DNA of 63,915 nucleotides, filler included. It is 9 parts of 9 records of this genome, joined end to end, with 100 filler letters (N's around TTAATTAATTAA, not from the genome) between each part and the next. Parts side by side here need not be neighbours in the genome. Positions count along the whole stretch, not along the records: positions 8,749 to 17,784 come from SRR7504441_6325; 8 more parts are not named here. One strand, given 5' to 3'. Under the pieces are notes generated by a model, which saw only the letters and a list, made by a program, of their open reading frames with translations, searched no databases and was not told the origin of the DNA. Both the position numbers and the translations under genes were made by a program. Positions 1 through 55,676 of this stretch are shown piece by piece. Position 1 is the stretch's first letter, and every line of letters begins with the position of its first letter.

Positions 1-206
1 GTCCGTTGCTCACCACCATTTGGTGTGTTTTGAGCATGCTTGACAAACTCGTCCGCGCTGTACCGCCGCCGGATGAAGAGTGTCACCGCCGACCGAGGCA
101 GTTCCCAGAAGGCCATGGCTGTGATTACCATCGTCGCAAACTCGCCGGGCCGCTCCAGAGACATGCTCTTCGGCCCGCTGTAGTGCATCCGGCTGGGCAG
201 CTCCAT
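1..206 (-). CDS. 5' part of a hypothetical protein, truncated by the window edge
   Basis: ATG at 206 opens MELPSRMHYSGPKSMSLERPGEF... A possible 36-nt GT-AG intron continues the frame to the edge. It is head-to-head with the gene at 272, like most gene pairs here. No family recognised. Confidence 0.3.
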   Translation of the reverse strand, partial: MELPSRMHYSGPKSMSLERPGEFATMVITAMAFWELPRSAVTLFIRRRYSADEFVKHAQNTPNGGEQR

Positions 207-271
207 AGTGTGACGCTTGCTCTACCCGAACGTCGCCGTGTAATAACGTACTTGACTTTCATCTAACGGCT

Positions 272-1342
272 ATGTCGGTGCAGCGAGTGGTGTCTCTTTT
301 GGCCTGGCTCGTGCTCGGCCGGGCGGTGAACCCGGCTTGGCCGGCGGAGTGGAGCCTTGCACGGAGTACGGTGGTCCAGCCGGGTGGGCCGGCCGGTGGC
401 TACTTCGATCCGGCACACCCCTGGGGGCTGGTGAGCCTGGACTGGGGGGTCGCATCGAGCATATGGCAGCCCCGCAACGCCTGCGAGGCCGTGTCCGTGG
501 AGGGCTGCCGGCGGCTCAAGGCGGCGGGCAAGGCGGTCAGGTGCTTAATCTACCACAACATGGAGCTCGGGCTCTCGTGGCTCGAGAGCAACCGGCAGGC
601 CATGTACGATCCGGCCCGCCGGCACTTCTGGCTGCGCTGGCCGAACGGCTCGATATACAATGAGCGGATCAGCTGGGGAGATCAATACTTTTGGGACTAT
701 CGGAACCCGGAGGCGGCCGAATATATGATCCAGGCGGTGATTCAGGCGGTCAACCACTCGGCGACGGACGGCACCTTCACGGACGACGTCGGGTTCGGAG
801 GGGAGCACCAGGCCGTGGCGCAGCGGCTCGGGCTGAGCGCCCGGGCGGTCTGGGACTTGGGGAACGCCACGCTGCGCACCTACGACCGGCTGGTGCGGGC
901 GCTGGTGGCCACGGGCAAGTTTAACTGGCAGTCGCTCGGGGCCTGGGGCGACTTCGCCGGACCCGGGATCAAGCAGAACGCCTCGGCGCCCGACCCGCCC
1001 TGGAGCCAGCCGCTCGGCTGCCTCGATTTCTTCCGACGGTACTGCGCTCAGCCAATGTCGCCGATGCTGATGGGGGTGGTGGGCGGCACACCGGTCAACC
1101 ACTCGATAGCGGCCTTTCTGATCGTGCGGGCCGAGATCGGCTACCTGGGCTGGGGCTGGGAGGGTGTGGTCAACCAGGACGTCAGGTGGGACCCGATGTT
1201 CGCCCTGGACGTGGGAGAGCCGAACGGCCGGTGCACTGAGACGGCCCCTGGGGTGTTCTCGAGGGAGTGGACACGCGGCCGGGCCGAGCTGGACTGCAAC
1301 CGGTGGGTGGCCGACCTGCAATTTGATCTACTTAAGTCATAG
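272..1342 (+). CDS. Secreted putative glycoside hydrolase (GHL15-like)
   Basis: 356-aa intronless ORF with a hydrophobic signal peptide. Motifs YFWDYRNPEA, DGTFTDD and C-terminal LDVGEPNGRC..GVFSREWTRG.AELDCN resemble hypothetical glycosyl hydrolase family 15-like proteins. Confidence 0.6.
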   Translation: MSVQRVVSLLAWLVLGRAVNPAWPAEWSLARSTVVQPGGPAGGYFDPAHPWGLVSLDWGVASSIWQPRNACEAVSVEGCRRLKAAGKAVRCLIYHNMELGLSWLESNRQAMYDPARRHFWLRWPNGSIYNERISWGDQYFWDYRNPEAAEYMIQAVIQAVNHSATDGTFTDDVGFGGEHQAVAQRLGLSARAVWDLGNATLRTYDRLVRALVATGKFNWQSLGAWGDFAGPGIKQNASAPDPPWSQPLGCLDFFRRYCAQPMSPMLMGVVGGTPVNHSIAAFLIVRAEIGYLGWGWEGVVNQDVRWDPMFALDVGEPNGRCTETAPGVFSREWTRGRAELDCNRWVADLQFDLLKS

Positions 1343-1482
1343 ATAATAACCATAATAAACTAACACAATCATGCGGCATCGGCGGCGGCTACTCGTTCGC
1401 TCGTTGGCCTTGTATACTGCGTACCGCCGAGCCAACAGGAGCTACACTGAGCCGGCTTCAACGGAAGCATCTCGGCAACAGC

Positions 1483-4400
1483 ATGGGCGAGCGGCGGGCC
1501 GAACTGCAGAGGCAGTTGGACGAGTTTGTGTCCTCGGGCCGGGCCCAGCTGGAGATGAGCCCGCAGCTCTCCGCACAGGACCGGGCGATGGTGCACCAGC
1601 TCGCCCAGCAGCTCGGGCTCGACCACCAATCCAAGGCAAACCGGCCGCCGCCACCGCTAACCCGGCGCAGGGGCAGGGCGGCCAGAGGTTCGTCTGCGTG
1701 TCCAGGGCCCAGAAGCCGGTGCTGCGGGAAGGCGCCGGCGAAGGGCTGCAGCACGGGGCGGCGGAGGTGATCCAGGCGATCAAGTCGGTGACCTGGGACG
1801 GTCGGCTGCCGGCCCGTGGATTCGTGATTGGCTACGAGGACCGGTTCCTCGGGCTGCTCGAAAAGTCGTTCACTGCGTTCGAGGGGTTCGGTGCTGAGAT
1901 CGCCGGGCTGGGCGGCCGGCGGGCCCTGGCGATACCCACCCACAGGATCCGTCATGTCAAGTACAAGGGCGAGTTGGTCTGGGACCGGGCCGCCAGATAC
2001 GATGTGCTGCGCCAGGTCATCTCCGAGGCATGCCAGGCCAGTCCCGCCGGCAGCCCGGCCGAGGCTGGAGAAGCGCTCGGTGTGAGCGCAGACAGACTGG
2101 CCTGCGTGCCACCGGACCGGCCACACACGCACTTTGTGTGCATCCGTGTCGCCACCACCAGCAGCGCCAATGCCGCCCACGCAGTGCGGCAGCACCTGGC
2201 TGGCCAGCGCGAGGGCCTGTCGGAGCTCTGTCTGCCGCCCGCTGCGCTGCACCTCACTTTGGGGTTGGTCTGCTGCCCTGACCCGGCTGCAGTGGCCAGG
2301 CTCGGCCGGCTGATGACCCAGCTTGGCCCGTTGTGGCACGCGCTCTTGGCGGACCAGTCGATCAGGCTGCACGGGGTCAGGAGCCTCCGAGGCGGCAGGC
2401 TGCTCTACACTCGGCCAACCCATCCGGAGCGGCTGGCGGCCGCCGCATACGCGCTGCAGGTGGCGGCTCACGCCGAAGGCTTGCTCAATAGGAGCCAGCT
2501 CCATTCGGTGTACGAGCCGCATGTCACGCTGCTCAATCTGCGGCCGCAGCATGAAGCGCTGATGCAGCCCGGTTGGAGCTGGGACCCGATCTCAGAGCTG
2601 GACTTTGGTACGTTGCAAGTCACCCAAGTGCTTGCGTGTGTGGCCGGACCCTGGGCGGAGAACCATGAGGAAGCCTCCCAGTTCTACCCCGTCGCGCACC
2701 GCACCGTACTGGCTCCGTTCTCGCCTGTGTCTGGCCAGCTGGTGGTCCTGCAGCGTGATGATAATGCTGCTGGACCAGTCGACCAAGGCGCGATCAGTGC
2801 TGACTATTACCAGAATATATTCGCCGGAATGCCGCATTCGACGGTCCGCGACTGCGTTGGGTCAACTGCAGCGCTTCAGGTGCAGCACAGCGCTGCGCTG
2901 GATCGGCCCGATCGGGCCTGGCAGCTGAGCCAAGGCGGTGTGTTGCTCGAGTTGGCTGAAGCGGCGCTCCTAGGCCTGAGCATGGTGTTGCTGGACCCAG
3001 GTCCTAACTGCCCGCTAAAAGCGATGGACACGCTGCTGCATGTCGGCCTGTGCGCTGGGTACATTGGTTGCGTGGCAGCGGCTCCAGGGTCTGCTGTCCC
3101 AGCCGAGGCAAGCCACCCACTTTGTGTGCAGACTCTGGATGGCAGCTCCACGCTCCAACTGCTCAGACCCAGCTACAGCTGCCTGCAGCTCACTTCTGAG
3201 AGCAGTGATCTGCTACTCACTACGTTCCCGCCCGCCTTTGAGAAGGTGACGGCCAACCACGTCACGCTCCGGTTTGCACCCTCCGCCAGTCAGCTGGACG
3301 AGCTAGCTAGTCAGATGGAGCCTGAAAGCGAGCTGAACGAACTCCGCGTGGTTGCCAGCTTGCCGATCAGTGTTCAAGAGCAGTACGGGATTCAAGCTGT
3401 GACTGTCCAGATCCCGGCCGGTCTGAGCTGCGCCAATGAGCATCCGCACGTCACCCTGTCAGCAAGGAAGGGAGTTGCAAACAAAACTTCGAACGATGCA
3501 CTGGCTAGCGCTGAAACTTTAGAGCCCATAGAGCCGCCTCTGACTGTATCTGCGAGGTTGGTTGTGGTGTACCGTGCTGGCAATATCCGGCGGGACCTTG
3601 CGGATCCGGTTCACGTTCGCTGCCTGACAAGCCAGATGCGACAAGGCAATAACAAGTCGGGCCAGGGAAGAGCCTCCGCCGTTGTCGGAGCTGCTCCAGA
3701 GGGTGCACCGAGCGAGTCGAATGACCCTGTGCGGATCCTTCACATCTTCGACTTTGACCAGACCCTGTTCATGACCACCGACCCGGTTATTGGCAGACTC
3801 GAGTACAAGGAGCTCACCGGGCGCGCCTGGCCACATCAAGCCTTCCTGGCTCACCCAGAATCGCTCATGTGGCCGTTCAAACAAGTGGCTGGCCCGGCTC
3901 TGGCGACACTGCGGGATGTGTCGGACCAGCGCGGTGCATCAGTCAGGGCCGTGATCGTGAGCGGTCGCCGCGCAGCATGCAAGCAGCAAATGGCTGCAAT
4001 GTTAGCCAGAGAGAATATGTCAGTTGACAGCATCATCCTCCGCCAGAACGAGTCGGAGCCCTCCGAGCTCAAGCCGTCTGGAGGTAAGGTGAGGTGGGAT
4101 CAAAACAAAACGCAAGGCAAAGGTCACGCGAAAGCGGCACTGGAGGCAACTGCCGAGTGGAAGGGTGAGATGCTCTCAGAACTGCTCGAGCAACATCCCG
4201 GACTGCGCCAAGTCCATATATACGAAGACGACCCAGCACACTTGAAGGCCTACTCGGAGATAATGACCCAGACAAGCCACAGCTGCGAGTTTGTACTGCA
4301 CGACGCCTCTGCTCCACAAGACGACGTACCAGGAGTCTTGGGTGTGCTACAACGGCACAACCGGCTTGCAGGTAATGGCGAGCGCAGGATTCACGCGCAG

Positions 4401-5576
4401 GCGGCGGCTGTGTTGAGAGATGCATGGTGCGAAGTGGTTGGATATGCTGGCAAGGATGCCAACTGCATTGCACGGATATTTGGCTCCAGCCGTCTGTGGA
4501 GGCGCTCGGATGTCGATCTCTGCCTCATAGGGCCCCTGAGCATGCGCAGCCATGCAGCTTGCGCCGAGGCACTCCAGGCAGTGCTGCAAGCGAGAGGAGT
4601 GGTGGAAACTTACATCGGCGCTGGAAGGGTACCCCGTCTAGCTTGCAGAGTCGCTGTTCGTTCTGACACCATGGGGGCGTATACTCTTGTGGAGTTGGAT
4701 GCTGTGTTTTGTCTGATTGCCGATCACGCCTTTGTTCAGCTGCCTGAAGCCAGCCTGAGCAACGAAGCAATCCATCAGCTGTGCCTCGACGCTGGGGACG
4801 CTGTCTCCCAGGCAGCCATCGACGGCCCGATCGCGTTTGATTCACTTCGTAAACGACTTGTAGGAGAGACTGGTGTGCGCCTACTGAATGTCAAAGAATT
4901 CGGGCGGGCTTTGGAGACGATCTTGTTTGGGTTGGAAAGGGCCCAGTTGAAATCCAACCTGAATGCCGGGGTTCGCACTTTCCAGTGGCAAGAGTGGATG
5001 GCTGAGTACTTGCAACAGTTGCCCGAGGCTCCCATCGGTGCTGATGTACTTGTATCCGGCTTTGTCCGCTGGGTTGCTAGCTTGAATTTGAAGGTCTGGC
5101 AAGACCGACTGCACAAGAGCGCCCAGCATTCAGTGCCAGTGGCCCTCTTGAGGGAACTGCATCAATTCTTCATCAGATGGGCCGGGCTGATCCAAAAGTC
5201 CGGCGATGCCGCCGCCGAGTTGCAGTGCTTGATTTCGAGCCAGGATCGGCCCAGGATGTGTGGGGGTGTCACTGTCACGATTAGTTGCGGCAGTGGAGCG
5301 AAGCTGTGGCGACTGCTGAAGGTGGCGGAGGTGTCTATGGAAGTGTCTGCGCGACGGTTGTTTGACGCCGGTCTAGTGCCACTAGTGACAACACAAGCCC
5401 ACGGGATACGTGACACTGCGTCTGCCGCTTCGATCAGCTTCGGGTTTCTCCAAAGAGGCTCAGGTGCAAATAAGCCAGACGCCGGAGTCGTGGAGGAGTG
5501 TCTAGCGCCGGCTCGAGACGCACTGGACGCCGCTTTGAGCAGCGAAGGCGGTTTCACTTATACATGTAGTCTATAA
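1483..5576 (+). CDS. Multi-domain RNA repair protein: R3H + MJ1316 (DUF504) + two 2H phosphoesterases + HAD phosphatase + pol-beta-type nucleotidyltransferase (LENG9 / Swiss-army-knife-like)
   Basis: Exon 1 (1483-1635; ...DRAMVHQLAQQLGLDHQSK) joins exon 2 (1671-5576; GQGGQRFVCV) across a GC-AG intron, completing the R3H domain. MJ1316 motif: WD..FVIGYEDRF..IPTHRI..LVWDR. HxT motifs at 2250, 2520, 3258 and 3447; FDFDQTLF at 3750; FGS..SDVD at 4482-4517. About 1352 aa. Confidence 0.85.
1636..1670 (+). other. 35-nt GC-AG intron
   Basis: AAG|gcaaac...gctaac...cgcag|GGG. Removal restores the R3H H-x-S-x-G motif and the reading frame. Confidence 0.85.
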
Positions 5577-8648: not shown

Positions 8649-8748
8649 NNNNNNNNNNNNNNNNNNNNNNNNNNNNNNNNNNNNNNNNNNNNTTAATTAA
8701 TTAANNNNNNNNNNNNNNNNNNNNNNNNNNNNNNNNNNNNNNNNNNNN
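8649..8748. other. Artificial contig linker
   Basis: N run + TTAATTAATTAA (stops in all six frames) + N run. Confidence 0.99.
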
Positions 8749-9170
8749 TGGCTGACCGTGTCCGAATGGCTAGCTATGTTGGTTTGCCTGTTTTGCTGCT
8801 AATACATTTTGCATGCTTATTTGAACTCACGACGCCGGCTGGAATCCGTACCGAATCGATCGTGATCCTTGTATCGAGCTAACCTCGAACGGCAACCTCG
8901 CTAACCTGGACCGATCATGTCTATTTACTACTGCCTAGTTAAGTCTTATTTCCATTTTGCATTTTAATAAAGCTAAAATTCAATTTTCTGTGTCACCATC
9001 TACCATGCCGGCCGCGTGCCAAGTGCTGATCACAGATATCTACTGAGAACAGATCATAGAGACTGCTAGTCAACACTGTCCAATTCGATGGTATAGCAAG
9101 CAGAAGCTCGCATGATTCACACAGTTGGCACGAAAGTAATGAAGATACAATCGCGCATAACCCTTTGTAC

Positions 9171-12100
9171 TTAATTATTGTAATTTTGATGATGTCTTGG
9201 TTGAGGGAACCGTCGTTCTGACTCATCATGATAGTACAAACAATTTGCTCCATTACGGCACCTTCCATCCTTTTGATAAAACATACATGCCTTGGACTTA
9301 TAGTTCCAAGGTTTATTTTCTAGTGTCGCAGCTGATGGCGCCATTGTCATTGGAGCAATCCCCCCAGCTTTGACATTTGCAAAAGGGTTGCCACCAGCCA
9401 CTCCCTGCCAGCCCAACACTCAGTGACTCCTCTTTGTCAAGAAGCAGCGGTGGGCAGGCTAAGTGCATGCATGCATCTGTACAGGGGCTGGTAGACAACA
9501 AGATCGGACCAGTTTCACTGATGGCGCTGAGACATAGGAGTATCTGGGACTGCAGCAGCAGTGGCACACATGTGTACATGAGAACACGTGTGTGGCACTA
9601 CTGTTACAGTGCCAAGGAGAGCGAGCAACAGATGCTGATGGTGCTCATAAGCGAGACCAGAGGGCAACTATGCCTGCTACCCTAACCCAGGGCAACTCCC
9701 GCATCTTTAATTCTCGAACGACTGCACCAAACGCGAAACGAAGGCTGAACAGATGGCGAGCGTTTCAAAAAGGTGGTATGCAGGTTAGGGGAGATGGTAG
9801 ATACCTGGGAGGCCGCTGGGCCTGGCTTGGCCACTGCGTTCAGCAATGTCTTCAGCAGATCAGCCTCAGCGTTCCCAGAGCCGGCAGCTGCTGGTGGCAA
9901 TCCTGCTGGTGGGTGTGGCATCACGTTTTGAGCTCCAGGCATCATGCCTCCCGTGGGCTGCAGCTGGACTGTAGGCGGCATCCCACTGCCGCCGCCCATG
10001 CGTGAGGCGGCTGAAACAAGTAGATCTTCCATGTTAGATCCGCTCGACTGTTGCATCTGTGTGAGCAAAGAGAGCAGCAGCTGCGGATTGGCTCCCTTGG
10101 GAGGCTCTGGCGCCGGGGGTGGCGGTGGCAGAGGGCCTCCCATGCCCATTGACGGCGGCGGTGGCGGCGGGCCTCCCATGCCCATTGACGGCGGCGGCGG
10201 CGGGATTGCACCCGGTGGCTGTGGAAAAGCCTCGCCATTCTCGCCGACTTCTGTGACGGGGAACTCCTTGGTGAGTGCGTCAAGCGAGAGTGTCTGGTCT
10301 GCTGGTGGCTCCTGGATCACCATCTCGCTCAGACCAACGCTATAGTTGAACATGGGGGTGGTGCGGCATCGGGAGGCCTGGGCCTGCTTCTCTGTGCTCT
10401 GGAACTCGAGTTCGTGCACGCACGATTCTGGGATCTCAACCTCTGTCGGGGGCGCCCACGTTGTCGCTGGCTCCATCTGCTTCGACAGTCCGTCTACAGA
10501 GACAGAGAAGGCATGTGCTCCCATTGAGCTGTCCACAGGCGGCTGCCATGGTGCCATGTCGTCTGGGAACCCCTGTCGCTTGAGGGCAGCCTTAGCCGCC
10601 TTCTCTTCGCGCTTTTCGCGGCGTCGGAGCTCTTCTGTGGAAGCAACGCCTAAGCCCCATTTCGGCCACTCCTCCTGGAACGGCGAGTATGTCCGCACTG
10701 TCTTGAGCGCCGCACCCTCGGCCCATCTGATCTTGCGTGCTCGCGTCGGAGCCTCCCTTTGCGGATGGTCGGCTCCGATCTCATAACCTCCAGACCACAA
10801 CGTCTCCTTTGGCTGCAGCTGGACAGGTCGTGATTCGCGTGGGCTGGGGATCTTAGCCGCAGGTTGCAGCTGCACTGACTCGTCTTTGATGAAGCGCGCC
10901 CGGTCCTTCATCTGCTTGATGTGGTCTGCACTCATAGGGGCAGAACTATGATCCCGTCGATGAGCTGGTGCCGACGCGCGGTACCCAGCCCTGAATCGCC
11001 CGGCCCCAGAGTCGGCCCCACCGCCAGTTCCAATTGGCTTGAGGTCGACTTCACGCGGCTTGGATGCGAACATGTCGCCGTCGTCTGGCTTCTGTTGCGG
11101 TTTCTCGACGGCCGGCTTCTTGGCCACCGGTTCGAGTGTGGGCTGAGGGCGAGGCCGCTTGTTGCCAGGGAGGTCTCCAGGAACGATCTCACCTGGAGCC
11201 TCGTCGCCTTTGGCTGGGATGAATCGCGACCAAGCTGTCACCAGGTGCTTTGCCCGCTGTATCGTATCCTTCTCAGAGTCTTTCTCCAGTCGCTTGACAG
11301 TCTTGCCTATCCCACTCTTCTGCATGCCCTCCAGCGTCATCGGGATCAAACACAACACCCGGAGTACCATCCGAGTGACCACCGTGCTGCCCGTGGCCTT
11401 GGCGTCCACCATCCATTTGTTGAGCAGCTGCAGCAGCCCGCACTGTACCAGCTTGCGCAGGCAGCTTATGGACTCAGTCTCAGCCACACAATTCAGGACC
11501 ACCGGCCGGTCCTTGGGCGACACCTCGCCTCGCACCACGTTCATGAAGTTGAGTGCGGACACCGGGTCGCGCAGGCCACCGTCGCGGTTCAGGAAGGAGC
11601 GGATCGATGTCTCAATTGCCGACAACTCCGGCTTCTTGGCCTTGGGCTGGTCCGGCTTCGCGCGCTTTGTGAGCGTGGCGCGGCCGGGCGGGTCGAGCGG
11701 ATGCTTGAGGGATGGCCGCTTCTTGGGGAAGGAGGCTTGCCCGCCCAGGAGCGGCCTCGACCTGGACGCCTGGTTGAAAAACTGTCTAACCAGCTTCTCG
11801 GGCGTGCGAAGCTGCCTGGCGATCTCAGCCAGGTCGGCGTCCTTGCGCTTTGGCATCTGCTGGTACAACATGGTAAGCTTGCGCACCGCCTCCGGCTTGA
11901 TCGGGATCTGGCGGGCGCTCATCGACAGCCGGACCGGTTCGTCGTCGTCCGAGACGTCGTCCAGCTTCTCGGCGTCGATCAGCCGGCCGGACAGCGGGTC
12001 CAGACCCACGATGAATCGATACACCCAGATCAGCCGCTTGAGCTCCAGCCGCTGGCGCTTCTCGCACTCCTGCATCAGGCGGACCAGCTGCTCGGCCGGC

Positions 12101-12378
12101 GGCTCCGGCTGCGCTTCGGCCGGCTGCTCCTCGCGCACCGCGCCGGTGACGGCCGGCGGCGGCGAGACTGCCTGAGGCTCGTTGTGGGCCACCCCGACCG
12201 TGCCGACCTCCATCTCGGTCATCTCGCTGGGCTCGGGCGCGTCCGCCGGCCCCGCCTCTTCTGCGGGCGGCTCTACGGCGGGCGGCTCGACCGGGCTGGT
12301 GACCACATCGAGAAGGACCGTGTCGTCCATCGGCGAGCCCGGACTGGCCGCGCTGAGCTCCGCCGGCGGGTCCTCCAT
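9171..12378 (-). CDS. PNUTS/PPP1R10 - LUMINIDEPENDENS-like PP1 regulatory subunit (homeodomain-like + TFIIS N-terminal domain + RVxF + Pro-rich + CCCH zinc finger)
   Basis: Homeodomain-like KLTMLYQQMP..DLAEIARQLRTPEKLVRQFFNQ; TFIIS-N MTLEGMQKSGIGKTVKRL..AKHLVTAW; PP1-docking RKIRW (about 10723-10738). The last exon (9171-9404) encodes YKSKACMFYQKDGRCRNGANCLYYHD and follows a 400-nt intron (9405-9804). Likely start is MEDPP at 12378. Confidence 0.8.
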
Positions 12379-12521
12379 GCTGAGCGCGCCCGCTTCCGCT
12401 TGTCGCGTCGGCTCCGGGGCCTGCGCTCGGAGGACGGAGGTGGAGTCAGTCCGTTGATTGGCGTGCTGCCGGGTGCACGCCGGGGTGCAAGGGGCTCTAG
12501 CCCCCACCGCGGTGCCCGGGC

Positions 12522-12543
12522 GCTGCTGCTGCTGCTGCTGCTG
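12522..12543. repeat. (CTG)7 microsatellite in the divergent intergenic region
   Basis: gctgctgctgctgctgctgctg read directly. Confidence 0.8.
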
Positions 12544-12586
12544 CCCGCGAGCCGTGTGAGGAGTCTCTGATCGGGGCGGCGAGCGG

Positions 12587-15500
12587 ATGGAGACGCCAGC
12601 GGAGGACGGGCAGCAGTCTGCCTGGCGGGCGGCCGGCGCGCAGTCGCGTAGCCTGGTCAACCTGATCAAGCATGGAGGGTCGGCCGTGTCTGAGGACATG
12701 GACGTGGTGGACGGCAACACCGCGGGGCTGATGGAGGCGATCGACTTTCGGTACGTGCCCATCCGTTGGCTGTGCGGGCTGGTGCGGCAGCCGGTGTTTG
12801 GATCGGACGACCCACAGGCCGCCGACCAGCTGGACCACGCCGAGCTGCTCTACCGGCGGTACCTAGCCACCCGGAACGGGCCGACGGTCCAGCGGGCCTA
12901 CATGTTCGTCGGGGTCTGCCTGCTGTTCTTCGGGGGGGTGGTGCTGGTGATGGCCCTGGACGACTGGTCCGGCTCCTACGAGCCCGGGCACACCCCGTCC
13001 AACAGCGACCAGCAGCGGCTGCGCGAGCTCCGGCTCGAGCTGGCCGGGGCCTACTTTGGGGGCAGCGTGGCCGCAGGCCTGGGGGCGGCTGTCTGGGGCA
13101 ACCACCTTTTCGCGGTGGCCGCCACGCTGTGCCGGCACACGACGGTGCAGCTCGTAACAGCCACTGTGATAGCCGCCGCGCTGTCTTACGTGGCTGACGT
13201 GTACAAGCGCGAGTACGACGACAATGCACTCGACGTGCCGTTTGAGAATAGTTTCTTCACTGGGTCAATCTGCACCGCTGTACTTGTCATCTTCTCTCGG
13301 TATGGCGGAATGCAGTGGCCGGCCGCTACGCTGATGGTTTTCCTCACGTGCGGCTACTGGATCTATAAGATAGCACACGACCGGGTTCTCACTATTATCT
13401 CGGCTGTGCTTCTGTTCGGCTTAATCACTCGTATTTCGCGAGCAGATGACCGGAAGGAGCGGCAGTCGTTCCTGATGCAAGGGATGGGCGGAGTGATCTT
13501 CAATCGATACTTGCTGGCGGCCCGGCCGCTGTACCGATCCGACCAGACCACTGTGCTGCTCGGCAAGGATCTATGGGCCGAGGTGCTTGGTATGAGCTCA
13601 GTGGCTCTCAAGCTCACTAAGGTGCTCGAAGTAGACTCGGGCTGCACGCTGACCTTGTGTGGTGCAGTCTCTCGAGTCCTTTGAAGCCGAACTCCAGGCG
13701 CGATTCGGCCAAGAGCCGAGCCTGGACAGCTTGATACGCAAATCGGCTTTGCTGGATTCAAAGTACGTGGTGCCTGTAGTCGCTTGGCACGAGCATGTCG
13801 GCACAGCTCCTGTTCGGAACCTGGTCTCTGGACCGAATGCCGTCCCAGCAAATGACGACTGGGGCCGAGGGAGTGTACGGATGGAGCGTCGAGATGGTAG
13901 CCATCGGCGGCGCACCTCTTTTACCGATGATTGGGCCGACACTGAGACAATGTATTGCATTGCAATGCCTATGGCCCGGGGCAACCTACGCGACACGCTC
14001 GCCACAGAGGACTTTGCAGGCAAGGACGTGGTCCAGATCCAGACGCTTGCCCAAGAGGTGGCCGAGTGTCTGTCGCACCTGCACGCGAAGGGTCAGATTT
14101 TAGCAGACTTGCGCCCATCGAATCTCGTGTTGAGCAACGGACGGTGGAAGCTGATCGATCTAGACTCTGCAGTCCCGGTGGGCGCTCGGCTGCGGCAGGG
14201 TAAGTTCACCGAGGCCTACATGCCGCCTGAGGTTATGAAATACCGGTTGGTCACGCGAGGCTGCCAGCACACTTCTTTGGATCCAGTTGTTGCATCGCCA
14301 GCGTTGGACATTTGGAGCTTTGGGGTGGTTTTATACGAGCTCCTGACAGGGTTTCCTCTGTTTCGACACCAGCAGGTCACTGGGGCGCTCGCATCACTGG
14401 ACGAATGCCAGCGGCTCAAGTGCTGGCGAGAACTCTCCCGTCAGCAGCTTGCCATGATACTGAGCGAAGATGCTGCTTGCTCTTTGGTTCGGAGGGTCAT
14501 GGCAGCCGACTTAGTGGCCATGTGCTTGCAAGGTAATCCTGAGAACAGGATTGAATCTGTGGATCATATCCTTGCTCACCCGTTCTTCAGCGACCATGTG
14601 ATGGCCATGCCAGTATCAAGGTTTAGCTCGTCTTCGTGTATTCATTCTTCTGCCTCCCACCGCTTTAGCCTGCGATCGAGCACGTCGGAACAAGGCTTCC
14701 GAAGCAATGCACCTGACGTCATTATCTCATACTCCAGCTCCCAACTTGCTCAGATGAAGCGACTTCGGCAGAGCCTAAACATGCTTGGGATCAGCACTGC
14801 TGATGGCAGCCAAGTGCCGCCTGGGATGGACTGGAGGATTTGGTACTTTCAAAAGCTGGAGGGGGCAAAGGTGTTTCTTCCCATCTTATCCAAGACTTTC
14901 ATGAAATCGCCCGAGTGCAATGAAGAGGTGCTGCGCGCTCAAAAGAAGAATTTACCGGTCGTGGCTTGCATGGCCGATCGAGCCGGCTGCGAAGAGGTGG
15001 CAGCCGCAACAGATTTAGAAAATGACCTGCGAGAGCGGATAGCAACTTATAATGATTATCTTGGCAACACTATCCCCGCAGCTGGGGACCTCTTTGGTAA
15101 AGATTTGGAGGCGAGCACGAGATTCTTTGACTACCTTAGAATCCTAGTTCAGAATCTGCTCCCTAGTCTGGAAGAAGTGAAAGAGCAGTCGCCGCAAGCC
15201 ATTCTATTGTGCGCTGAGAGCGACATGAAGTTTACCCATGGCCTACGTGTACGGCTTGAGGATGTGGGCATCAGGGTGGATCTAGGCCGCACAGTGGCGA
15301 GCCATTGGCACGACGCCAAGATTCTGGTCCCTGTGCTATCAGACAGTTTTCTGTTTTGCAGTGAGTGCACCAAGGTCATGCTCTGGTGCACTCAAGAGAA
15401 GAATCTGGCAATCGTGCCGGTGCTGTGCAACTCGAAGGCGTACTCCGCCGTGATAAGCGCAAGTGGAGAGGATAGCCCGTACTTTGCACAACACCCAGGC

Positions 15501-16181
15501 CTGGCTGAGGCACTCCCTTTCTTGTGCAGTGTGCTGAATCGGTGCAACCGCATACCGCCAAACACAGACTTTTCGGACGACCCATCTGTGCTCGAGGAGT
15601 TGCGTATGGCCATCCTCGAGCAGGGCCAATACTCGCGGAGTATAACCAATCTTGTGGCACAGAGAGTGCCAAAGTACGCGGCATTGATTGGTTCGTCCAA
15701 ATGTGTGCCGCGCAGCTGTGAAGTCTTCCTGGATAATGAGCAAGAACACATGCTGGAGCTCTGCTCAGTGCTGCAGACGCAGGTTTGGTCCAGGCAGTCT
15801 GGAGCTGGGCCAGAGCCAAAGCGTGCGTCTGCTCAGCCAGAGAAGGTGCTAATTTCGCACAACCATCATGAGACTGCGTTGCGACTACAGAAAGCATGCC
15901 AGCAGCACTCGATTGAAGCAATCTTGCTACCTGTGGGTGATCTGAGATGGTATAGGTATCTCCAAGATGTGGAGATTTGCCTCTTGTCTCTTACACCTGA
16001 ATTTGTGAGGTCCTCTTGGTGCGAAGGGCAGCTCACATTTGCCAAGGACTGCCGCAAGATCATAGTTCCGGTGATCATGGATGAAGTGACGTTTGCTATT
16101 CTAAACGAGTTTGATGGCCGCGAGAATGAAATACCTTCATACCTCCTAGACGCGTCCATGCCAGCTTTCGATGCCGGATAG
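12587..16181 (+). CDS. Multi-TM Ser/Thr-type protein kinase with three C-terminal TIR domains
   Basis: Exon 1 (12587-13621) has about 6 hydrophobic helices and ends in VALKLTK. After a 46-nt GT-AG intron (13622-13667), exon 2 carries kinase motifs LADLRPSN, KLIDLD, YMPPE and DIWSFG. TIR-like units follow at about 14715-14970, 15190-15430 and 15840-16080. Confidence 0.85.
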
Positions 16182-16569
16182 TGAGGGAGTGTAGAGGTGC
16201 AATGCGGAATTTTCCGATTAGGTGATACTCAACACACACACAACATTAAACTAGACCTAATTGCTCTATAACTGCTCATCTATTGCTCATCATTCCGTGC
16301 CCTCTGCTTTACCTCTGCTTAGTTCGTGAGTTTAAGGAGCCTTATTTTGAATTTTGTAAAATCCCATGATTAATATAATAGATGAATTCATGAATTTTTC
16401 TATACCCATTTAATAAATATAGAACCCTGAGGAGAACTAATGATCAATAGCAAATAAGAACTACATACATGTACGTATTATGTACGTATTAAATCAAGAC
16501 TTAGTACTCGGTGTAGTTTTGAAATGCAGTGATGCGGTGGTAACCCTCCTACCAATCTGCTCGTCAGCG

Positions 16570-17603
16570 CTAGCCCGGCCATCGGGTAACCATGTAGTAA
16601 ATCACCACACCGATCACAAACAGAAACACAAGAATGACCAGCAGCAGCAGCAATACCTGCTTGTTGGGCCCAATCAGGTCGTGGAGCTTATCGGAGATGT
16701 CTTTCTTGACCTTGTCAGAGATGTTCTGCAGGTCCTGGTTGTTGTGATCCACCTTACTCTGCAGCTCCCGGATCCGCATGCTCAGTTTCCGCTGTTTTAT
16801 CAGCTGAGAATCTATCATTTGCACCTGCCGCACTCTCAGCGCCGGGCCATTCGCCCAGCTACCTGGCTCTCCTCCATCAGGTCGATCGACTCGATCTGCC
16901 CGCCCATTCAGCCACCCGCCGCCCTCGGCCGCGCCTTGTTTTTGAGCCTCTCCACCAGGTCGTCTGTGAACTCTTCGTTCTCTCGCAACCGACCAAACTC
17001 ATCACGCAGCTCGCGCAGCTGCCTGCTGTTGTCCTGCCGGTCCCGGAACCCAGCCCCGACCTCGACCACCACGTCACCCTCGAGTGCATCCAAGATCTGC
17101 TCGTGTGCGTGCTTCCTGCGCTCGTTGCGCCGCTGCTGCACGTCGAGCGCCTCGGCCTTCTCAACCGCCGAGAAGATCTTGGCGTTCTCGGCCAGGAAAG
17201 TGGCCAGATAGTTCTGCTTCCGGTCCACGTCCAGCTCGAGCTCGGCCATCTCGTCCTCTCCCCTCATGATCTCCCCGATCAGCGCCTGCTTGTAACTCAG
17301 CTCCTGTGCCCTGGCCTGGTGGAGCGTCTGCGAATCGCTCCCGAACTTGCCTTGCCGGTCCAAGTCCCGCTCGCGCCGGTTGGAGATCAGCAGCCACAGC
17401 TTGTCGTACCGGTCGAGCAGCTGGTCCCGCTGGCCGCTCAGCTTGCGCCGGGAGTACACGAACTGGTTTTTGAGCTGCTGCCGCTTCTCCTCCACCTCCT
17501 GCTTGTACTGGGCGAACTCAACTGCGCCCGCGCCCAGCCCCGGTTCGGACTTGCCCCCTGGGATCTCAAACGGCTCCTGATCGCCCGACGATGGCCAGAC
17601 CAT
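16570..17603 (-). CDS. Tail-anchored coiled-coil protein (SNARE-like)
   Basis: Three exons (introns 16896-16934 GC-AG and 16825-16862 GT-AG). Long heptad coiled coil ending in a single C-terminal TM, VLLLLLVILVFLFVIGVVIYYMV. Confidence 0.65.
16896..16934 (-). other. 39-nt GC-AG intron
   Basis: AAG|gcgcgg...gctgaa...ggcag|ATC. It contains the in-frame TGA that ends the 16908 ORF. Confidence 0.7.
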
Positions 17604-17784
17604 TGCTGCTCGCTGCTCAAGCCGCGCCGGTGCGTGCCGAGCCCCCACTGCCCACACAAATCTCACGAGTTCATATTACACGAGTTCGGTGAACTCGCAG
17701 CCAAAAATGAAGGTGCTCAGATCGGGCCGAGCATGAGCGGGATCGGGTCTAGGGGTGCCGGGGAGCATTCGTATACAAGCGTTT

Positions 17785-17884
17785 NNNNNNNNNNNNNNNN
17801 NNNNNNNNNNNNNNNNNNNNNNNNNNNNTTAATTAATTAANNNNNNNNNNNNNNNNNNNNNNNNNNNNNNNNNNNNNNNNNNNN
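17785..17884. other. Artificial contig linker
   Basis: N run + TTAATTAATTAA + N run. Confidence 0.99.
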
Positions 17885-22508: not shown

Positions 22509-22608
22509 NNNNNNNNNNNNNNNNNNNNNNNNNNNNNNNNNNNNNNNNNNNNTTAATTAATTAANNNNNNNNNNNNNNNNNNNNNNNNNNNNNNNNNNNN
22601 NNNNNNNN
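22509..22608. other. Artificial contig linker
   Basis: N run + TTAATTAATTAA + N run. Confidence 0.99.
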
Positions 22609-27382: not shown

Positions 27383-27482
27383 NNNNNNNNNNNNNNNNNN
27401 NNNNNNNNNNNNNNNNNNNNNNNNNNTTAATTAATTAANNNNNNNNNNNNNNNNNNNNNNNNNNNNNNNNNNNNNNNNNNNN
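27383..27482. other. Artificial contig linker
   Basis: N run + TTAATTAATTAA + N run. Confidence 0.99.
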
Positions 27483-33885: not shown

Positions 33886-33985
33886 NNNNNNNNNNNNNNN
33901 NNNNNNNNNNNNNNNNNNNNNNNNNNNNNTTAATTAATTAANNNNNNNNNNNNNNNNNNNNNNNNNNNNNNNNNNNNNNNNNNNN
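33886..33985. other. Artificial contig linker
   Basis: N run + TTAATTAATTAA + N run. Confidence 0.99.
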
Positions 33986-37097: not shown

Positions 37098-38771
37098 TTA
37101 ATTAAATGCCTCTTGGCGCAGCAGCTCGGCAACGATATCGCCGTGTCTCCTGCCGTTATGCACCGCCCCGTTCATGTACCCCGCGCCCTTGGGGCTCCAC
37201 TCAGACCCTCCGAAGAACACCCGGCCGCCCGGCACCGCCCCGAACTGCTCTCTGGCCCGGCTGAGCACGTTGGGCGGCCACCAAGCCCCGTAGGCTCCCA
37301 TCACGTAAGGCTCCTCTGCCCAGGCCTGTCCGACCACGCTGCTCGGCCGCGGCAGCCCCGGCACGCCTTCAAGCAGCTTGTACCAGCCGTCGGCCCGTGC
37401 AGCGGCCGTCGAGCCGTTACCAGGCCAGCCGAAGCTGAACAACGCGCCCAGCCCACGAGGGCAGCGCTCGGTCGGCAGTGTGAGCGGGCTGTTGTCAATC
37501 ACGTCTGTAGGGAAGAAGCAAGTCCCGTTCGGATCCTGCTGGCTGTCGGCTGGGAGCGGCGGGAGCGCCTGGTACACCATGGGCCACATAACCTGACGGG
37601 CCGAGATATCCTCCCAGAGGGATCGGTTGGCCCTCCAGACCGGGCCTTGCTCAAACAAGGCGTAGTGCTTGTTGTAGTTGCCGATGTGCGCCGACTTGAG
37701 CATCAGCGCCACCCCCGGCGGCAGCGCCGGCTCCCAGGAGACATGTGCGCTCAGTGCGACAGGGGTGCCAGTTATGATGGCGTACTTGCCAACATAACTT
37801 TCTCCGTTGCTCGTCACAAACTCAACCGACGAACTTGTGTACCGGATCTTCCGGACCGGAGACGAGAGCTTGACCACCGCCCCGGCTTGCTCGAGCAAAT
37901 GGACCAGCCGCACACTCATTTGCTGCACACCTCCCACGATCCTGTAATTCTGTACATCGACTGCCATCGAGATCGTGCCCGAGTTGGACTTAACTGAATG
38001 CAGCCACCAGAGCGCCGAGCCCCGCCAGAAGATCTCTTGCCCGGATGAGCTAGCTGATGTGATCGAGATCCAGAACGCCGGCGGCAGGCTGGTTGGGTGC
38101 TGCAGGTTCACTTGATTGAGCCCCTGCGCTATCAGGTCCTCCTTAGTGATGTTGCACCCGACCGACCGCAGCAGCTCCAGAGGGGTCACCGCGTCCAGTC
38201 GCTCGGCCCCCGGGGTCTCCCACGGTTGGCCCAGCACCACGCTCGTGTACAGCTCGGCCATCCGGCGCTGGCACTCCGCCCCGGCCTGCGCCTGGCCGAT
38301 CCTGCTGCCGCTCGCATTCGGGCCGAAGAACGTGTCGGCCGCGCTTAGCCCAGGCGAGCTCGCCGGCGGGACCCGATCCAGCCAGCGCTCGACGGCTGGG
38401 TCCCGCCCGGCTGGGCCGACTGGGAAGCCATAGAGCGCCCAGGGCCACCCGTTGTACACCCCCAGATCGAGACGGTCGACCGCGAGGTCCCAGACGTCAG
38501 CGTCCACCTCGCGCTGGGCGATCCACTGGGCCCCGAGCTCGACCGTCTGGCCGCACACGGTGTGGTCCTTGGTCCGGCCGCCGATCCGGTCGCTCGCCTC
38601 GATGAGGCACACCCGGGGCTGCGGCGCCCCGACAGGCCGCTCACCCACCAGCCGCCAGGCGGCCGAGGTGCCGGCAAGCCCGGCCCCGAGCACCAGCACG
38701 TCGCACTCCACCCCGGCCGCCAGAGCAGGCAGCAGCAGCCCCCAGAGCCCAACCCAGCGCACCGGGACCAT
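37098..38771 (-). CDS. Secreted flavin-dependent amine oxidase (MAO/PAO family)
   Basis: Signal peptide, DVLVLGAGLAG, EASDRIGGR, VELGAQWI, W.EEPY.MGAY and FFGGSE..GYMNGAV.NG. Confidence 0.92.
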   Translation of the reverse strand: MVPVRWVGLWGLLLPALAAGVECDVLVLGAGLAGTSAAWRLVGERPVGAPQPRVCLIEASDRIGGRTKDHTVCGQTVELGAQWIAQREVDADVWDLAVDRLDLGVYNGWPWALYGFPVGPAGRDPAVERWLDRVPPASSPGLSAADTFFGPNASGSRIGQAQAGAECQRRMAELYTSVVLGQPWETPGAERLDAVTPLELLRSVGCNITKEDLIAQGLNQVNLQHPTSLPPAFWISITSASSSGQEIFWRGSALWWLHSVKSNSGTISMAVDVQNYRIVGGVQQMSVRLVHLLEQAGAVVKLSSPVRKIRYTSSSVEFVTSNGESYVGKYAIITGTPVALSAHVSWEPALPPGVALMLKSAHIGNYNKHYALFEQGPVWRANRSLWEDISARQVMWPMVYQALPPLPADSQQDPNGTCFFPTDVIDNSPLTLPTERCPRGLGALFSFGWPGNGSTAAARADGWYKLLEGVPGLPRPSSVVGQAWAEEPYVMGAYGAWWPPNVLSRAREQFGAVPGGRVFFGGSEWSPKGAGYMNGAVHNGRRHGDIVAELLRQEAFN

Positions 38772-38825
38772 CGCCCTTCAAAAAAAGCCGTTATTTCACA
38801 GCCACCGCGCCGCAGCCGGCACGGG

Positions 38826-42633: not shown

Positions 42634-42733
42634 NNNNNNNNNNNNNNNNNNNNNNNNNNNNNNNNNNNNNNNNNNNNTTAATTAATTAANNNNNNNNNNN
42701 NNNNNNNNNNNNNNNNNNNNNNNNNNNNNNNNN
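42634..42733. other. Artificial contig linker
   Basis: N run + TTAATTAATTAA + N run. Confidence 0.99.
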
Positions 42734-51549: not shown

Positions 51550-51649
51550 NNNNNNNNNNNNNNNNNNNNNNNNNNNNNNNNNNNNNNNNNNNNTTAATTA
51601 ATTAANNNNNNNNNNNNNNNNNNNNNNNNNNNNNNNNNNNNNNNNNNNN
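51550..51649. other. Artificial contig linker
   Basis: N run + TTAATTAATTAA + N run. Confidence 0.99.
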
Positions 51650-55576: not shown

Positions 55577-55676
55577 NNNNNNNNNNNNNNNNNNNNNNNN
55601 NNNNNNNNNNNNNNNNNNNNTTAATTAATTAANNNNNNNNNNNNNNNNNNNNNNNNNNNNNNNNNNNNNNNNNNNN
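55577..55676. other. Artificial contig linker
   Basis: N run + TTAATTAATTAA + N run. Confidence 0.99.

Follow-up and report, generated by a model that had tools for sequence, protein, structure and literature searches.

Bacteria, plants and animals all rely on TIR domains as the common currency of their innate immunity, and to our knowledge nearly all mechanistic work on them has come from these three groups. Among proteins that combine such a domain with a protein kinase, choanoflagellate 'Kinase TLRs' consist of a leucine-rich repeat (LRR) region, a transmembrane (TM) segment, a Pkinase domain and a TIR domain, and choanoflagellate 'Kinase TIRs' of Pkinase and TIR without a TM segment; within the data set of the study that described them, and as far as its available text goes, kinase-TIR architectures were unique to choanoflagellates (Richter et al. 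2018, PMC6040629). These proteins represent the closest published architecture to that of the product of a gene at positions 12587-16181 (plus strand) of a 63,915-nucleotide stretch of DNA, which was analysed as a whole and is hereafter called the window; the window protein falls outside the definition of a Kinase TLR. It comprises six hydrophobic segments, a kinase domain and three C-terminal TIR units. From its sequence and those of its relatives, we infer a conserved marine-protist family among the kinase-coupled TIR signalling proteins, with putative cleavage of nicotinamide adenine dinucleotide (NAD+), putative kinase activity and a putative role in immunity. The layout, which a preliminary description of the window had proposed from the sequence alone, is supported by hydropathy, by a Pkinase match of 84-87 bits, by TIR_2 matches and by profile-profile alignment with hhalign, and it recurs in the relative P0160.

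The scan of 12587-16181 for open reading frames (ORFs) returned two long forward ORFs in different frames, which are made one by removal of a 46-nucleotide intron with GT..AG ends (13622-13667, plus strand). Exon 1 (12587-13621, plus strand) contributes 345 codons, which encode a soluble N-terminal part, the six hydrophobic segments and the strands of the kinase N-lobe up to VALKLTK, and exon 2 (13668-16181, plus strand), joined in frame at 13668, contributes 837 codons plus the TAG stop codon at 16179-16181. The spliced translation is a protein of 1182 residues. Its splice junction lies inside the kinase N-lobe, with strand 3 (VALKLTK) at the end of exon 1 and helix C (SLESFEAEL) at the opening of exon 2. 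As reference for the spacing across this junction, we used P0008 and P0009, which are uninterrupted, transcriptome-derived homologues from Telonema subtile. In both, as in the spliced window protein, the VALK lysine and the helix-C glutamate are 11 residues apart, and the 46-nucleotide splice is supported because the N-lobe spans the junction with this spacing. Left unspliced, the first frame would reach a stop at 13682-13684, 21 codons past the end of exon 1, and the second ORF alone would encode a kinase without an N-lobe. The intron of the preliminary description is supported, as it is in frame, is bounded by GT and AG and leaves homology continuous across the junction. Two separate genes, one for a TM protein and one for a kinase-TIR protein, were considered and ruled out, since kinase strands 1-3 share the ORF of exon 1 with the membrane segments.

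At the 5' end, an in-frame TGA (12557-12559) precedes the ATG at 12587, which is the first in-frame ATG after that stop and the first ATG in any frame past the start of the divergent minus-strand gene. The composition of exon 1, with an in-frame GC content of 0.88-1.0 at third codon positions (GC3) versus 0.40-0.58 at second positions (GC2), is a coding signature. No frame break interrupts the 1182 codons, every domain is conserved with respect to relatives, and the whole gene lies within a single 9-kb piece of the window (8749-17784). Two metagenome runs of marine or aquatic origin (X1 and X2) contain contigs that match the DNA of the gene with 0-3 differences, and contigs identical to 14146-14412, 14902-15052 and 15092-15242 were found in two metatranscriptome runs (X4 and X6), which is a hint of expression. 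The locus is a genuine gene with two exons, and its host an uncultured marine protist.

The three C-terminal units were delimited as TIR1 (residues ~694-850; 14712-15182, plus strand), TIR2 (residues ~855-985; 15195-15587, plus strand) and TIR3 (residues ~1070-1182; 15840-16178, plus strand), with a helical linker between TIR2 and TIR3 (15588-15839, plus strand) that corresponds to helices 300-372 of the structural model. When the whole C-terminal region was searched, Pfam TIR_2 (PF13676; gathering score 28 bits) matched in two stretches with 69-72 bits (E 7e-19). Searched alone, TIR1 scored 44.4 bits, above the gathering score, TIR3 scored 25.3 bits (E 2.4e-5), just under it, and TIR2 gave no Pfam match and was detected through profile-profile comparison. 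The three TIR units of the preliminary description were thus recovered by the Pfam hidden Markov model in the case of TIR1, while TIR3 remained below the cut-off and TIR2 went unmatched. TIR2 was linked to TIR1 directly by BLASTP (E 3e-7). Alignment with hhalign of profiles built from relatives gave 98.5% (E 2.1e-15) for TIR2 against TIR1, 98.4% (E 7.1e-15) for TIR3 against TIR1 and 97.7% for TIR2 against TIR3. Each unit is closed by a similar N-x-IP...F motif (~15032-15070, ~15530-15570 and ~16110-16170); its TIR2 version, LNRxNRIP, belongs to the most conserved stretches of the family, and TIR3 carries a conserved CEGQLTFAKD. Judged by these sequence and profile comparisons, all three units are shown to be homologous to TIR domains.

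Against the PDB, the family profile of TIR1 matched the TIR domain of Cat1 (9mud; E 6.6e-5) as the sole entry at E<=0.01, and phmmer with the single TIR1 sequence yielded chance-level matches only (aldehyde decarbonylase, E 0.028). The first PDB match of the TIR2 and TIR3 profiles was the TIR domain of TLR15, at E-values of only 0.047 and 0.021, respectively, and the TIR domains of MyD88 and RPS4 were also among their first matches. A structural model of the 498-residue C-terminal region was computed with AlphaFold from a 68-sequence alignment, with a mean predicted local distance difference test score (pLDDT) of 90.6 and a predicted template-modelling score of 0.73; the single-sequence prediction of the TIR region, with a pLDDT of 34.5, was unusable. 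Foldseek matches were realigned with VIA, which aligned 999 chains, 130 of them with Z>=8. TIR1 (model residues 9-160) reached Z 15.9 with the TIR domains of Hydra TRR-2, SPARTA TIR-APAZ and SARM1 (root-mean-square deviation (rmsd) 2.3-2.6 over 123-132 residues), and the Foldseek matches listed include the TIR domains of RUN1, RPS4, RPP1, TcpB and TLR15. The search was run with the whole three-domain model, and the TIR matches were mixed with unrelated multi-domain Rossmann-like proteins. In the predicted model, TIR1 is shown to have a TIR fold, and the predicted beta-alpha elements of TIR2 and TIR3 follow the same order as in TIR1, at pLDDT >90 in TIR3 and mostly >90 in TIR2.

At the position of the catalytic glutamate, TIR1 reads SPECNEE and provides E765 (14925-14927), TIR2 reads SECTKV and provides V915 (15375-15377), and TIR3 reads SWCEGQ and provides Q1133 (16029-16031). 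The three residues share one column in the hhalign alignments of the unit profiles, and profile alignments place this column on the conserved glutamate of TLR15 and of the NADase Cat1. We surveyed the column in 152 relatives. Among TIR1-type domains (166 found, 148 covering the column), it holds Glu in 140, Gln in 5, and Leu, Gly and a gap in 1 each. The 28 TIR2-type domains that cover it, from 38 found, have Ala (8), Leu (4), Ile (4), Val (4), Glu (2), Ser (2), His (1), Met (1), Asn (1) and a gap (1), and the TIR3-type domains (33 found, 32 covering) have Gln (19), Glu (7), Arg (4) and Lys (2). As read from these alignments, the family is shown to keep the glutamate at the catalytic position in unit 1 only; unit 2 mostly has a hydrophobic residue there, and unit 3 has Gln, Arg or Lys. 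The preliminary claim that TIR1 alone has the catalytic glutamate therefore applies to the window protein, with E765 as opposed to V915 and Q1133, and to its relatives as well. In view of the column counts, this division of labour among the TIR units appears old and conserved, and the retention of the glutamate in a single unit, with other residues in both remaining ones, argues that it is selected for catalysis and has more than a structural role. The same preliminary description had treated TIR2 and TIR3 as pseudo-TIRs, which may be less apt for TIR3: its EGQLTF motif is strongly conserved, and all 12 sequences of alignment A3 share the glutamate that lies two positions ahead of the canonical one. 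TIR3 is conserved for something, and the label 'pseudo-TIR' may thus undersell it.

The protein kinase domain spans residues ~305-655 (13499-14597, plus strand) and is split by the intron. Pfam Pkinase (PF00069; gathering score 31.7) matched over profile positions 65-263 with E 1e-23 to 2e-24, and the remainder of the N-lobe, encoded in exon 1, aligns with P0008, P0009 and P0160. The best PDB match was phosphorylase kinase gamma (E 1.1e-12), followed by Aurora, TTK and DYRK; these closest kinases of known structure are of the ordinary Ser/Thr type, and their similarity is low. Phosphotransfer needs the strand-3 lysine, the helix-C glutamate, the catalytic aspartate and asparagine, and the metal-binding aspartate. 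According to the translation and the family alignment, this set is kept as K342 (13610-13612, within VALK), E353, D492 (14106-14108), N497 and D509. D492 and N497 are held by LADLRPSN, in which LAD replaces HRD with leucine in place of histidine, and DLD (D509-D511) replaces DFG. YRSDQT, which does not conform to GxGxxG, occupies the place of the Gly-rich loop; GxGxxG is likewise absent from the relatives compared, which have S-x-T-containing stretches there instead. The family as a whole is characterised by a D-[LF]-[DE] motif and by the loss of the Gly-rich loop; HxDxKPxN is retained in most relatives, and the SEAYxPPE of the activation segment is conserved. The translation agrees with the preliminary description on VALK, LADLRPSN, DLD for DFG and the missing Gly-rich loop.

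A Kyte-Doolittle scan placed the membrane region at residues 108-283 (12908-13435, plus strand), with six hydrophobic segments at residues ~108-124, 153-181, 187-203, 221-237, 246-262 and 267-283. Because their number is even, the N-terminus and the kinase-TIR part would be located on the same side of the membrane, presumably the cytoplasm. P0160 likewise has six hydrophobic segments, at similar positions, over residues 122-298. This relative is an independent full-length homologue of 1231 residues encoded by one ORF of a 3801-nucleotide metagenomic contig, in which the six segments are followed by the kinase, TIR1, TIR2, an EF-hand, TIR3 and a coiled coil; its cluster is membrane-anchored. 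The Pfam scan of exon 1 found no family on the membrane part and no LRR, and a look-up in the ESM Atlas assigned this part to unnamed eukaryotic 'transmembrane protein' clusters (0.93-0.94), in one of which 33% of the members carry AC_N, which is only a lead towards a possible link with the 6-TM modules of adenylyl cyclases.

With the TIR region as query, an exhaustive profile-free search returned 167 proteins at E<=1e-3, of which 42 reached E<=1e-10 and 8 reached E<=1e-30. Some 40 proteins are considered related, and almost all of them stem from marine metagenomes. According to Pfam, six of the ten best matches have Pkinase plus TIR_2, three have TIR_2 only, and one has a pair of EF-hands before TIR2- and TIR3-like units. 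Within alignment A1 (68 sequences, many of them fragments), 46 sequences match TIR_2 and 10 match Pkinase. The EF-hand of P0160 (residues ~1039-1063) is located between TIR2 and TIR3, and that of P0016 (160-228) lies ahead of a TIR2-like unit, which suggests an additional control by Ca2+ in these relatives; in the window protein, Pfam found no EF-hand on the linker between TIR2 and TIR3, which contains only a degenerate remnant. The predicted proteins P0005, P0015 and P0157 leave the family alignment right after QLTFA in TIR3, where the window gene reads through, and this break suggests an unrecognised intron at that site. Species were named for three of the 28 family proteins looked up (P0008, P0009 and P0018), all Telonema subtile; three others (P0020, P0037 and P0026) came from EukProt, and the remaining 22 had been assembled from metagenomes or metatranscriptomes (ENA, JGI, Logan and one MERC entry). 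No relative was found in a search of viral contigs. A scan with alignment A4 for genomic relatives returned a single locus (L001), which was rejected as a false positive, since the contig is bacterial and the match is not in its correct frame. Overall, proteins with a kinase and three TIRs make up a conserved family of protists, in which soluble and membrane-anchored forms are both present, and the source of the window gene is, as far as the evidence goes, an uncultured marine protist. The protist origin first suggested for it is supported, and relatives with this layout are found in further marine protists.

We propose, with a probability of about 0.55, that the protein acts as a switch for signalling or cell death, tethered to the membrane, in which an NAD+-cleaving TIR1 would be regulated by the kinase and accompanied by two non-catalytic TIR partners. 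A stimulus on the membrane part, or clustering of the receptor, would activate the kinase, and the activated kinase would release or complete TIR1, which would then cleave NAD+ and cause its depletion or generate an ADP-ribose-derived signal. TIR2 and TIR3, as non-catalytic units, would either restrain TIR1 or provide the TIR-TIR contacts that otherwise come from neighbouring subunits. TIR enzymes need self-association to build their active sites. A further elaboration, which we consider unlikely, is that the three TIRs assemble within the molecule into an asymmetric pseudo-oligomer, whose glutamate-less units provide the partner surfaces and so complete or gate the TIR1 site, with the kinase (and the EF-hand in relatives) as the switch. 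If so, it would constitute a membrane-tethered TIR assembly built within one chain, and the family would be an NAD+-based system for signalling or suicide that is widespread in marine heterotrophic protists and has yet to be studied.

Several observations weigh against the kinase-regulated switch or against parts of it. Retention of the glutamate is necessary and not sufficient for NADase activity. TIR domains commonly have a tryptophan four residues before the glutamate, and TIR1 reads E-C-N-E-E, without a tryptophan ahead of it. The TIR fold that the preliminary description expected of the C-terminal units was borne out by AlphaFold and Foldseek for TIR1, and among the VIA rows listed, all are within model residues 2-166 (TIR1) except 8qlp_E (8..315). 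The window kinase, with no Gly-rich loop and with leucine for the HRD histidine, may be weak or inactive, and P0012 has HGS for HxD and has lost the catalytic aspartate. As to the membrane part, phmmer against 151 relatives found no match to it, BLASTP against the N-terminus of P0160 revealed no significant similarity (E 0.29), a word-indexed search for longer proteins gave no relatives of it, and three relatives with full kinase N-lobes (P0008, P0009 and P0012) have short soluble N-termini. Finally, DNA can be present in RNA libraries, and none of the contigs from the two metatranscriptome runs spans the intron, exon 1 or the 5' end.

Among other explanations, the main one is a purely structural role of the TIR units. 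In this case, the TIRs would serve for protein assembly only, as TLR and adaptor TIRs do in the classical view, and the fused kinase would be the output, in place of a recruited IRAK-type kinase, with no NAD+ cleavage. The glutamate missing from two of the three units, the absent tryptophan of TIR1 and the TLR15, MyD88 and RPS4 domains that come first for the TIR2 and TIR3 profiles all agree with such a scaffold, and the authors who described the choanoflagellate Kinase TLRs and Kinase TIRs put forward the same logic for them (PMC6040629). A scaffold would, however, hardly explain without a catalytic role why the glutamate is present in 140/148 TIR1-type domains yet replaced in units 2 and 3. 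Moreover, the only PDB match of the TIR1 profile at E<=0.01 is an NADase (Cat1), and the NADase TIRs of SARM1 and SPARTA are among the top structural matches, at the same Z as the receptor TIR of Hydra TRR-2. We therefore favour the enzymatic function over the scaffold on account of the selective retention of the glutamate in unit 1, and regard the latter as possible and somewhat doubtful. Comparable doubt attaches to a pseudokinase, which would bind without phosphorylating and only help to regulate or dimerise the TIRs, and which is compatible with either function of the TIR units. That GxGxxG occurs nowhere in the family, that LAD and DLD stand for HRD and DFG, and that P0012 has HGS in place of HxD all speak for it; against this, K342, E353, D492, N497 and D509 are all kept, SEAYxPPE is conserved, and most relatives have HxDxKPxN.

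Two further explanations concern the gene model rather than the function. Translation or transcription could start near M297 or M300, which would leave the membrane part outside the mature protein and produce a soluble kinase-TIR protein like those of Telonema. The short, soluble N-termini of P0008, P0009 and P0012, the want of sequence relatives of the membrane region in the searches made and the metatranscriptome contigs, which do not cover exon 1, would all be accounted for in this way. We nonetheless deem such a start highly improbable: the membrane segments and the kinase N-lobe share one uninterrupted ORF, exon 1 has the coding composition given above, no other ATG lies between the divergent gene and 12587, and P0160 fuses a like six-segment N-terminus to a kinase. 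The remotest explanation, to which we attach hardly any weight, is an assembly or annotation artefact or a decaying pseudogene. It draws on the window being made of concatenated contigs and on the organism being known from metagenomes only, and it conflicts with the location of the gene entirely within one piece, with the independent metagenome contigs that match it almost without differences and with the intact frame and conserved domains over 1182 codons. The kinase-regulated, NAD+-cleaving switch is thus retained as the preferred explanation. The family provides a concrete, testable case from abundant marine protists, with one catalytic-looking TIR tied to two conserved non-catalytic TIRs and a kinase, in soluble as well as membrane-anchored forms. 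It is also a natural experiment in which to see how TIRs with and without catalytic function work together, and by what means an NADase that could be lethal is restrained.

The sequence around the gene was inspected as well. The divergent neighbour on the minus strand (9685-12378) carries a Med26/TFIIS-type domain, and a (CTG)n run occurs at ~12520-12545, inside the 200-base-pair intergenic region shared by the divergent pair. Third-position GC falls steeply in the 5'-to-3' direction, from ~0.9 to ~0.6, in both 9685-12378 (minus strand) and 12587-16181 (plus strand). In the AT-rich 3' flank (16240-16312), one metagenome contig from run X2 has 11 other bases in place of 71 bases, which is probably strain variation in the 3' untranslated region. 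Within the window, tblastn matched the kinase-TIR gene only to itself, and Rfam and tRNA scans found nothing. The window consists of nine contigs that were artificially joined, with spacers at 8649-8748, 17785-17884, 22509-22608, 27383-27482, 33886-33985, 42634-42733, 51550-51649 and 55577-55676, each of which comprises 44 N, TTAATTAATTAA and 44 N (an all-frame stop spacer). As these are nine separate contigs, neither linkage nor taxon can be transferred across spacers. On the other contigs, a 1405-codon ORF (1359-5573, plus strand) has MJ1316, AKAP7 2'5' RNA ligase-like, LigT and HAD_SAK_1 domains, and its product is an RNA-repair protein of the 'Swiss army knife' type. For a flavin amine oxidase ORF (37101-38777, minus strand), the closest relatives with a species name are from two diplonemids, Namystynia karyoxenos (59%) and Flectonema neradi (47%), and the next named ones are bacterial, at ~25%. 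A diplonemid origin was not assigned to the kinase-TIR gene, as the amine oxidase ORF sits on another joined contig; a literature search found nothing pairing diplonemids with a TIR domain.

With respect to known systems, the bacterial defence TIR models of PADLOC and NCBIfam gave no match at cut-off and faint matches only, namely to the ThsB model of Thoeris (E 0.0045, 14 bits, on TIR3; far below cut-off), to ThcB4 (18.4 bits versus a cut-off of 220) and to FxsC_Nterm (22.4 bits versus a cut-off of 130). The TIR domain of SARM1 (e.g. 9mw2 and 6o0u) aligns with TIR1 at Z 15.9 and rmsd 2.4-2.5 over 129 residues, with 19% identity and a glutamate at the catalytic position. The resemblance goes no further than the TIR fold: unlike SARM1, the window protein has no ARM or SAM domains and no tryptophan before the glutamate of TIR1, and the octamer mechanism is not implied. 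Cat1 (9mud), a CRISPR-associated TIR NADase, has a glutamate that aligns with E765; it differs in being a bacterial effector activated by cyclic tetra-adenylate (cA4), according to the title of the PDB entry, with a single TIR and no kinase. In Dictyostelium, TirC is described, in the portion of the report covered here, as an NADase TIR restrained by a membrane tether (10.64898/2026.04.30.722052), with one TM helix, one TIR of recent bacterial origin and no kinase, in which it is unlike the window protein. TirE, from the same organism and source, has tandem TIRs and no kinase (10.64898/2026.04.30.722052). Tandem TIRs on a membrane receptor also occur in mollusc Tolls; as far as the source describes them, these receptors are of the animal TLR type, have two TIRs and an LRR ectodomain, and lack a kinase (PMC4929906).

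The eukaryote-wide TIR atlas built on EukProt contains several eukaryote-only clades without a characterised member, and its main text, in the version available, never mentions kinases (10.64898/2026.04.30.722052). No description of the present architecture was found in the literature covered, and the supplementary tables of PMC6040629 and of the TIR atlas may list the Telonema proteins or similar architectures. The preliminary description had not recognised this architecture from model organisms: the layout with six segments and three TIRs is indeed undescribed in the literature found, whereas fusion of kinase and TIR as such has its precedent in choanoflagellates, as far as the accessible part of that study documents it (PMC6040629). 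Like the window protein, the choanoflagellate Kinase TLRs and Kinase TIRs carry a Pkinase followed by a TIR in one chain, occur in membrane and soluble forms and are, in the text covered, functionally uncharacterised. In contrast to a Kinase TLR, the window protein has no LRR ectodomain, six membrane segments instead of one and three TIRs instead of one. Its family belongs to Telonema and uncultured marine protists and not to choanoflagellates, and the two groups are likened here by domain order alone; the family thus extends kinase-TIR fusion beyond choanoflagellates.

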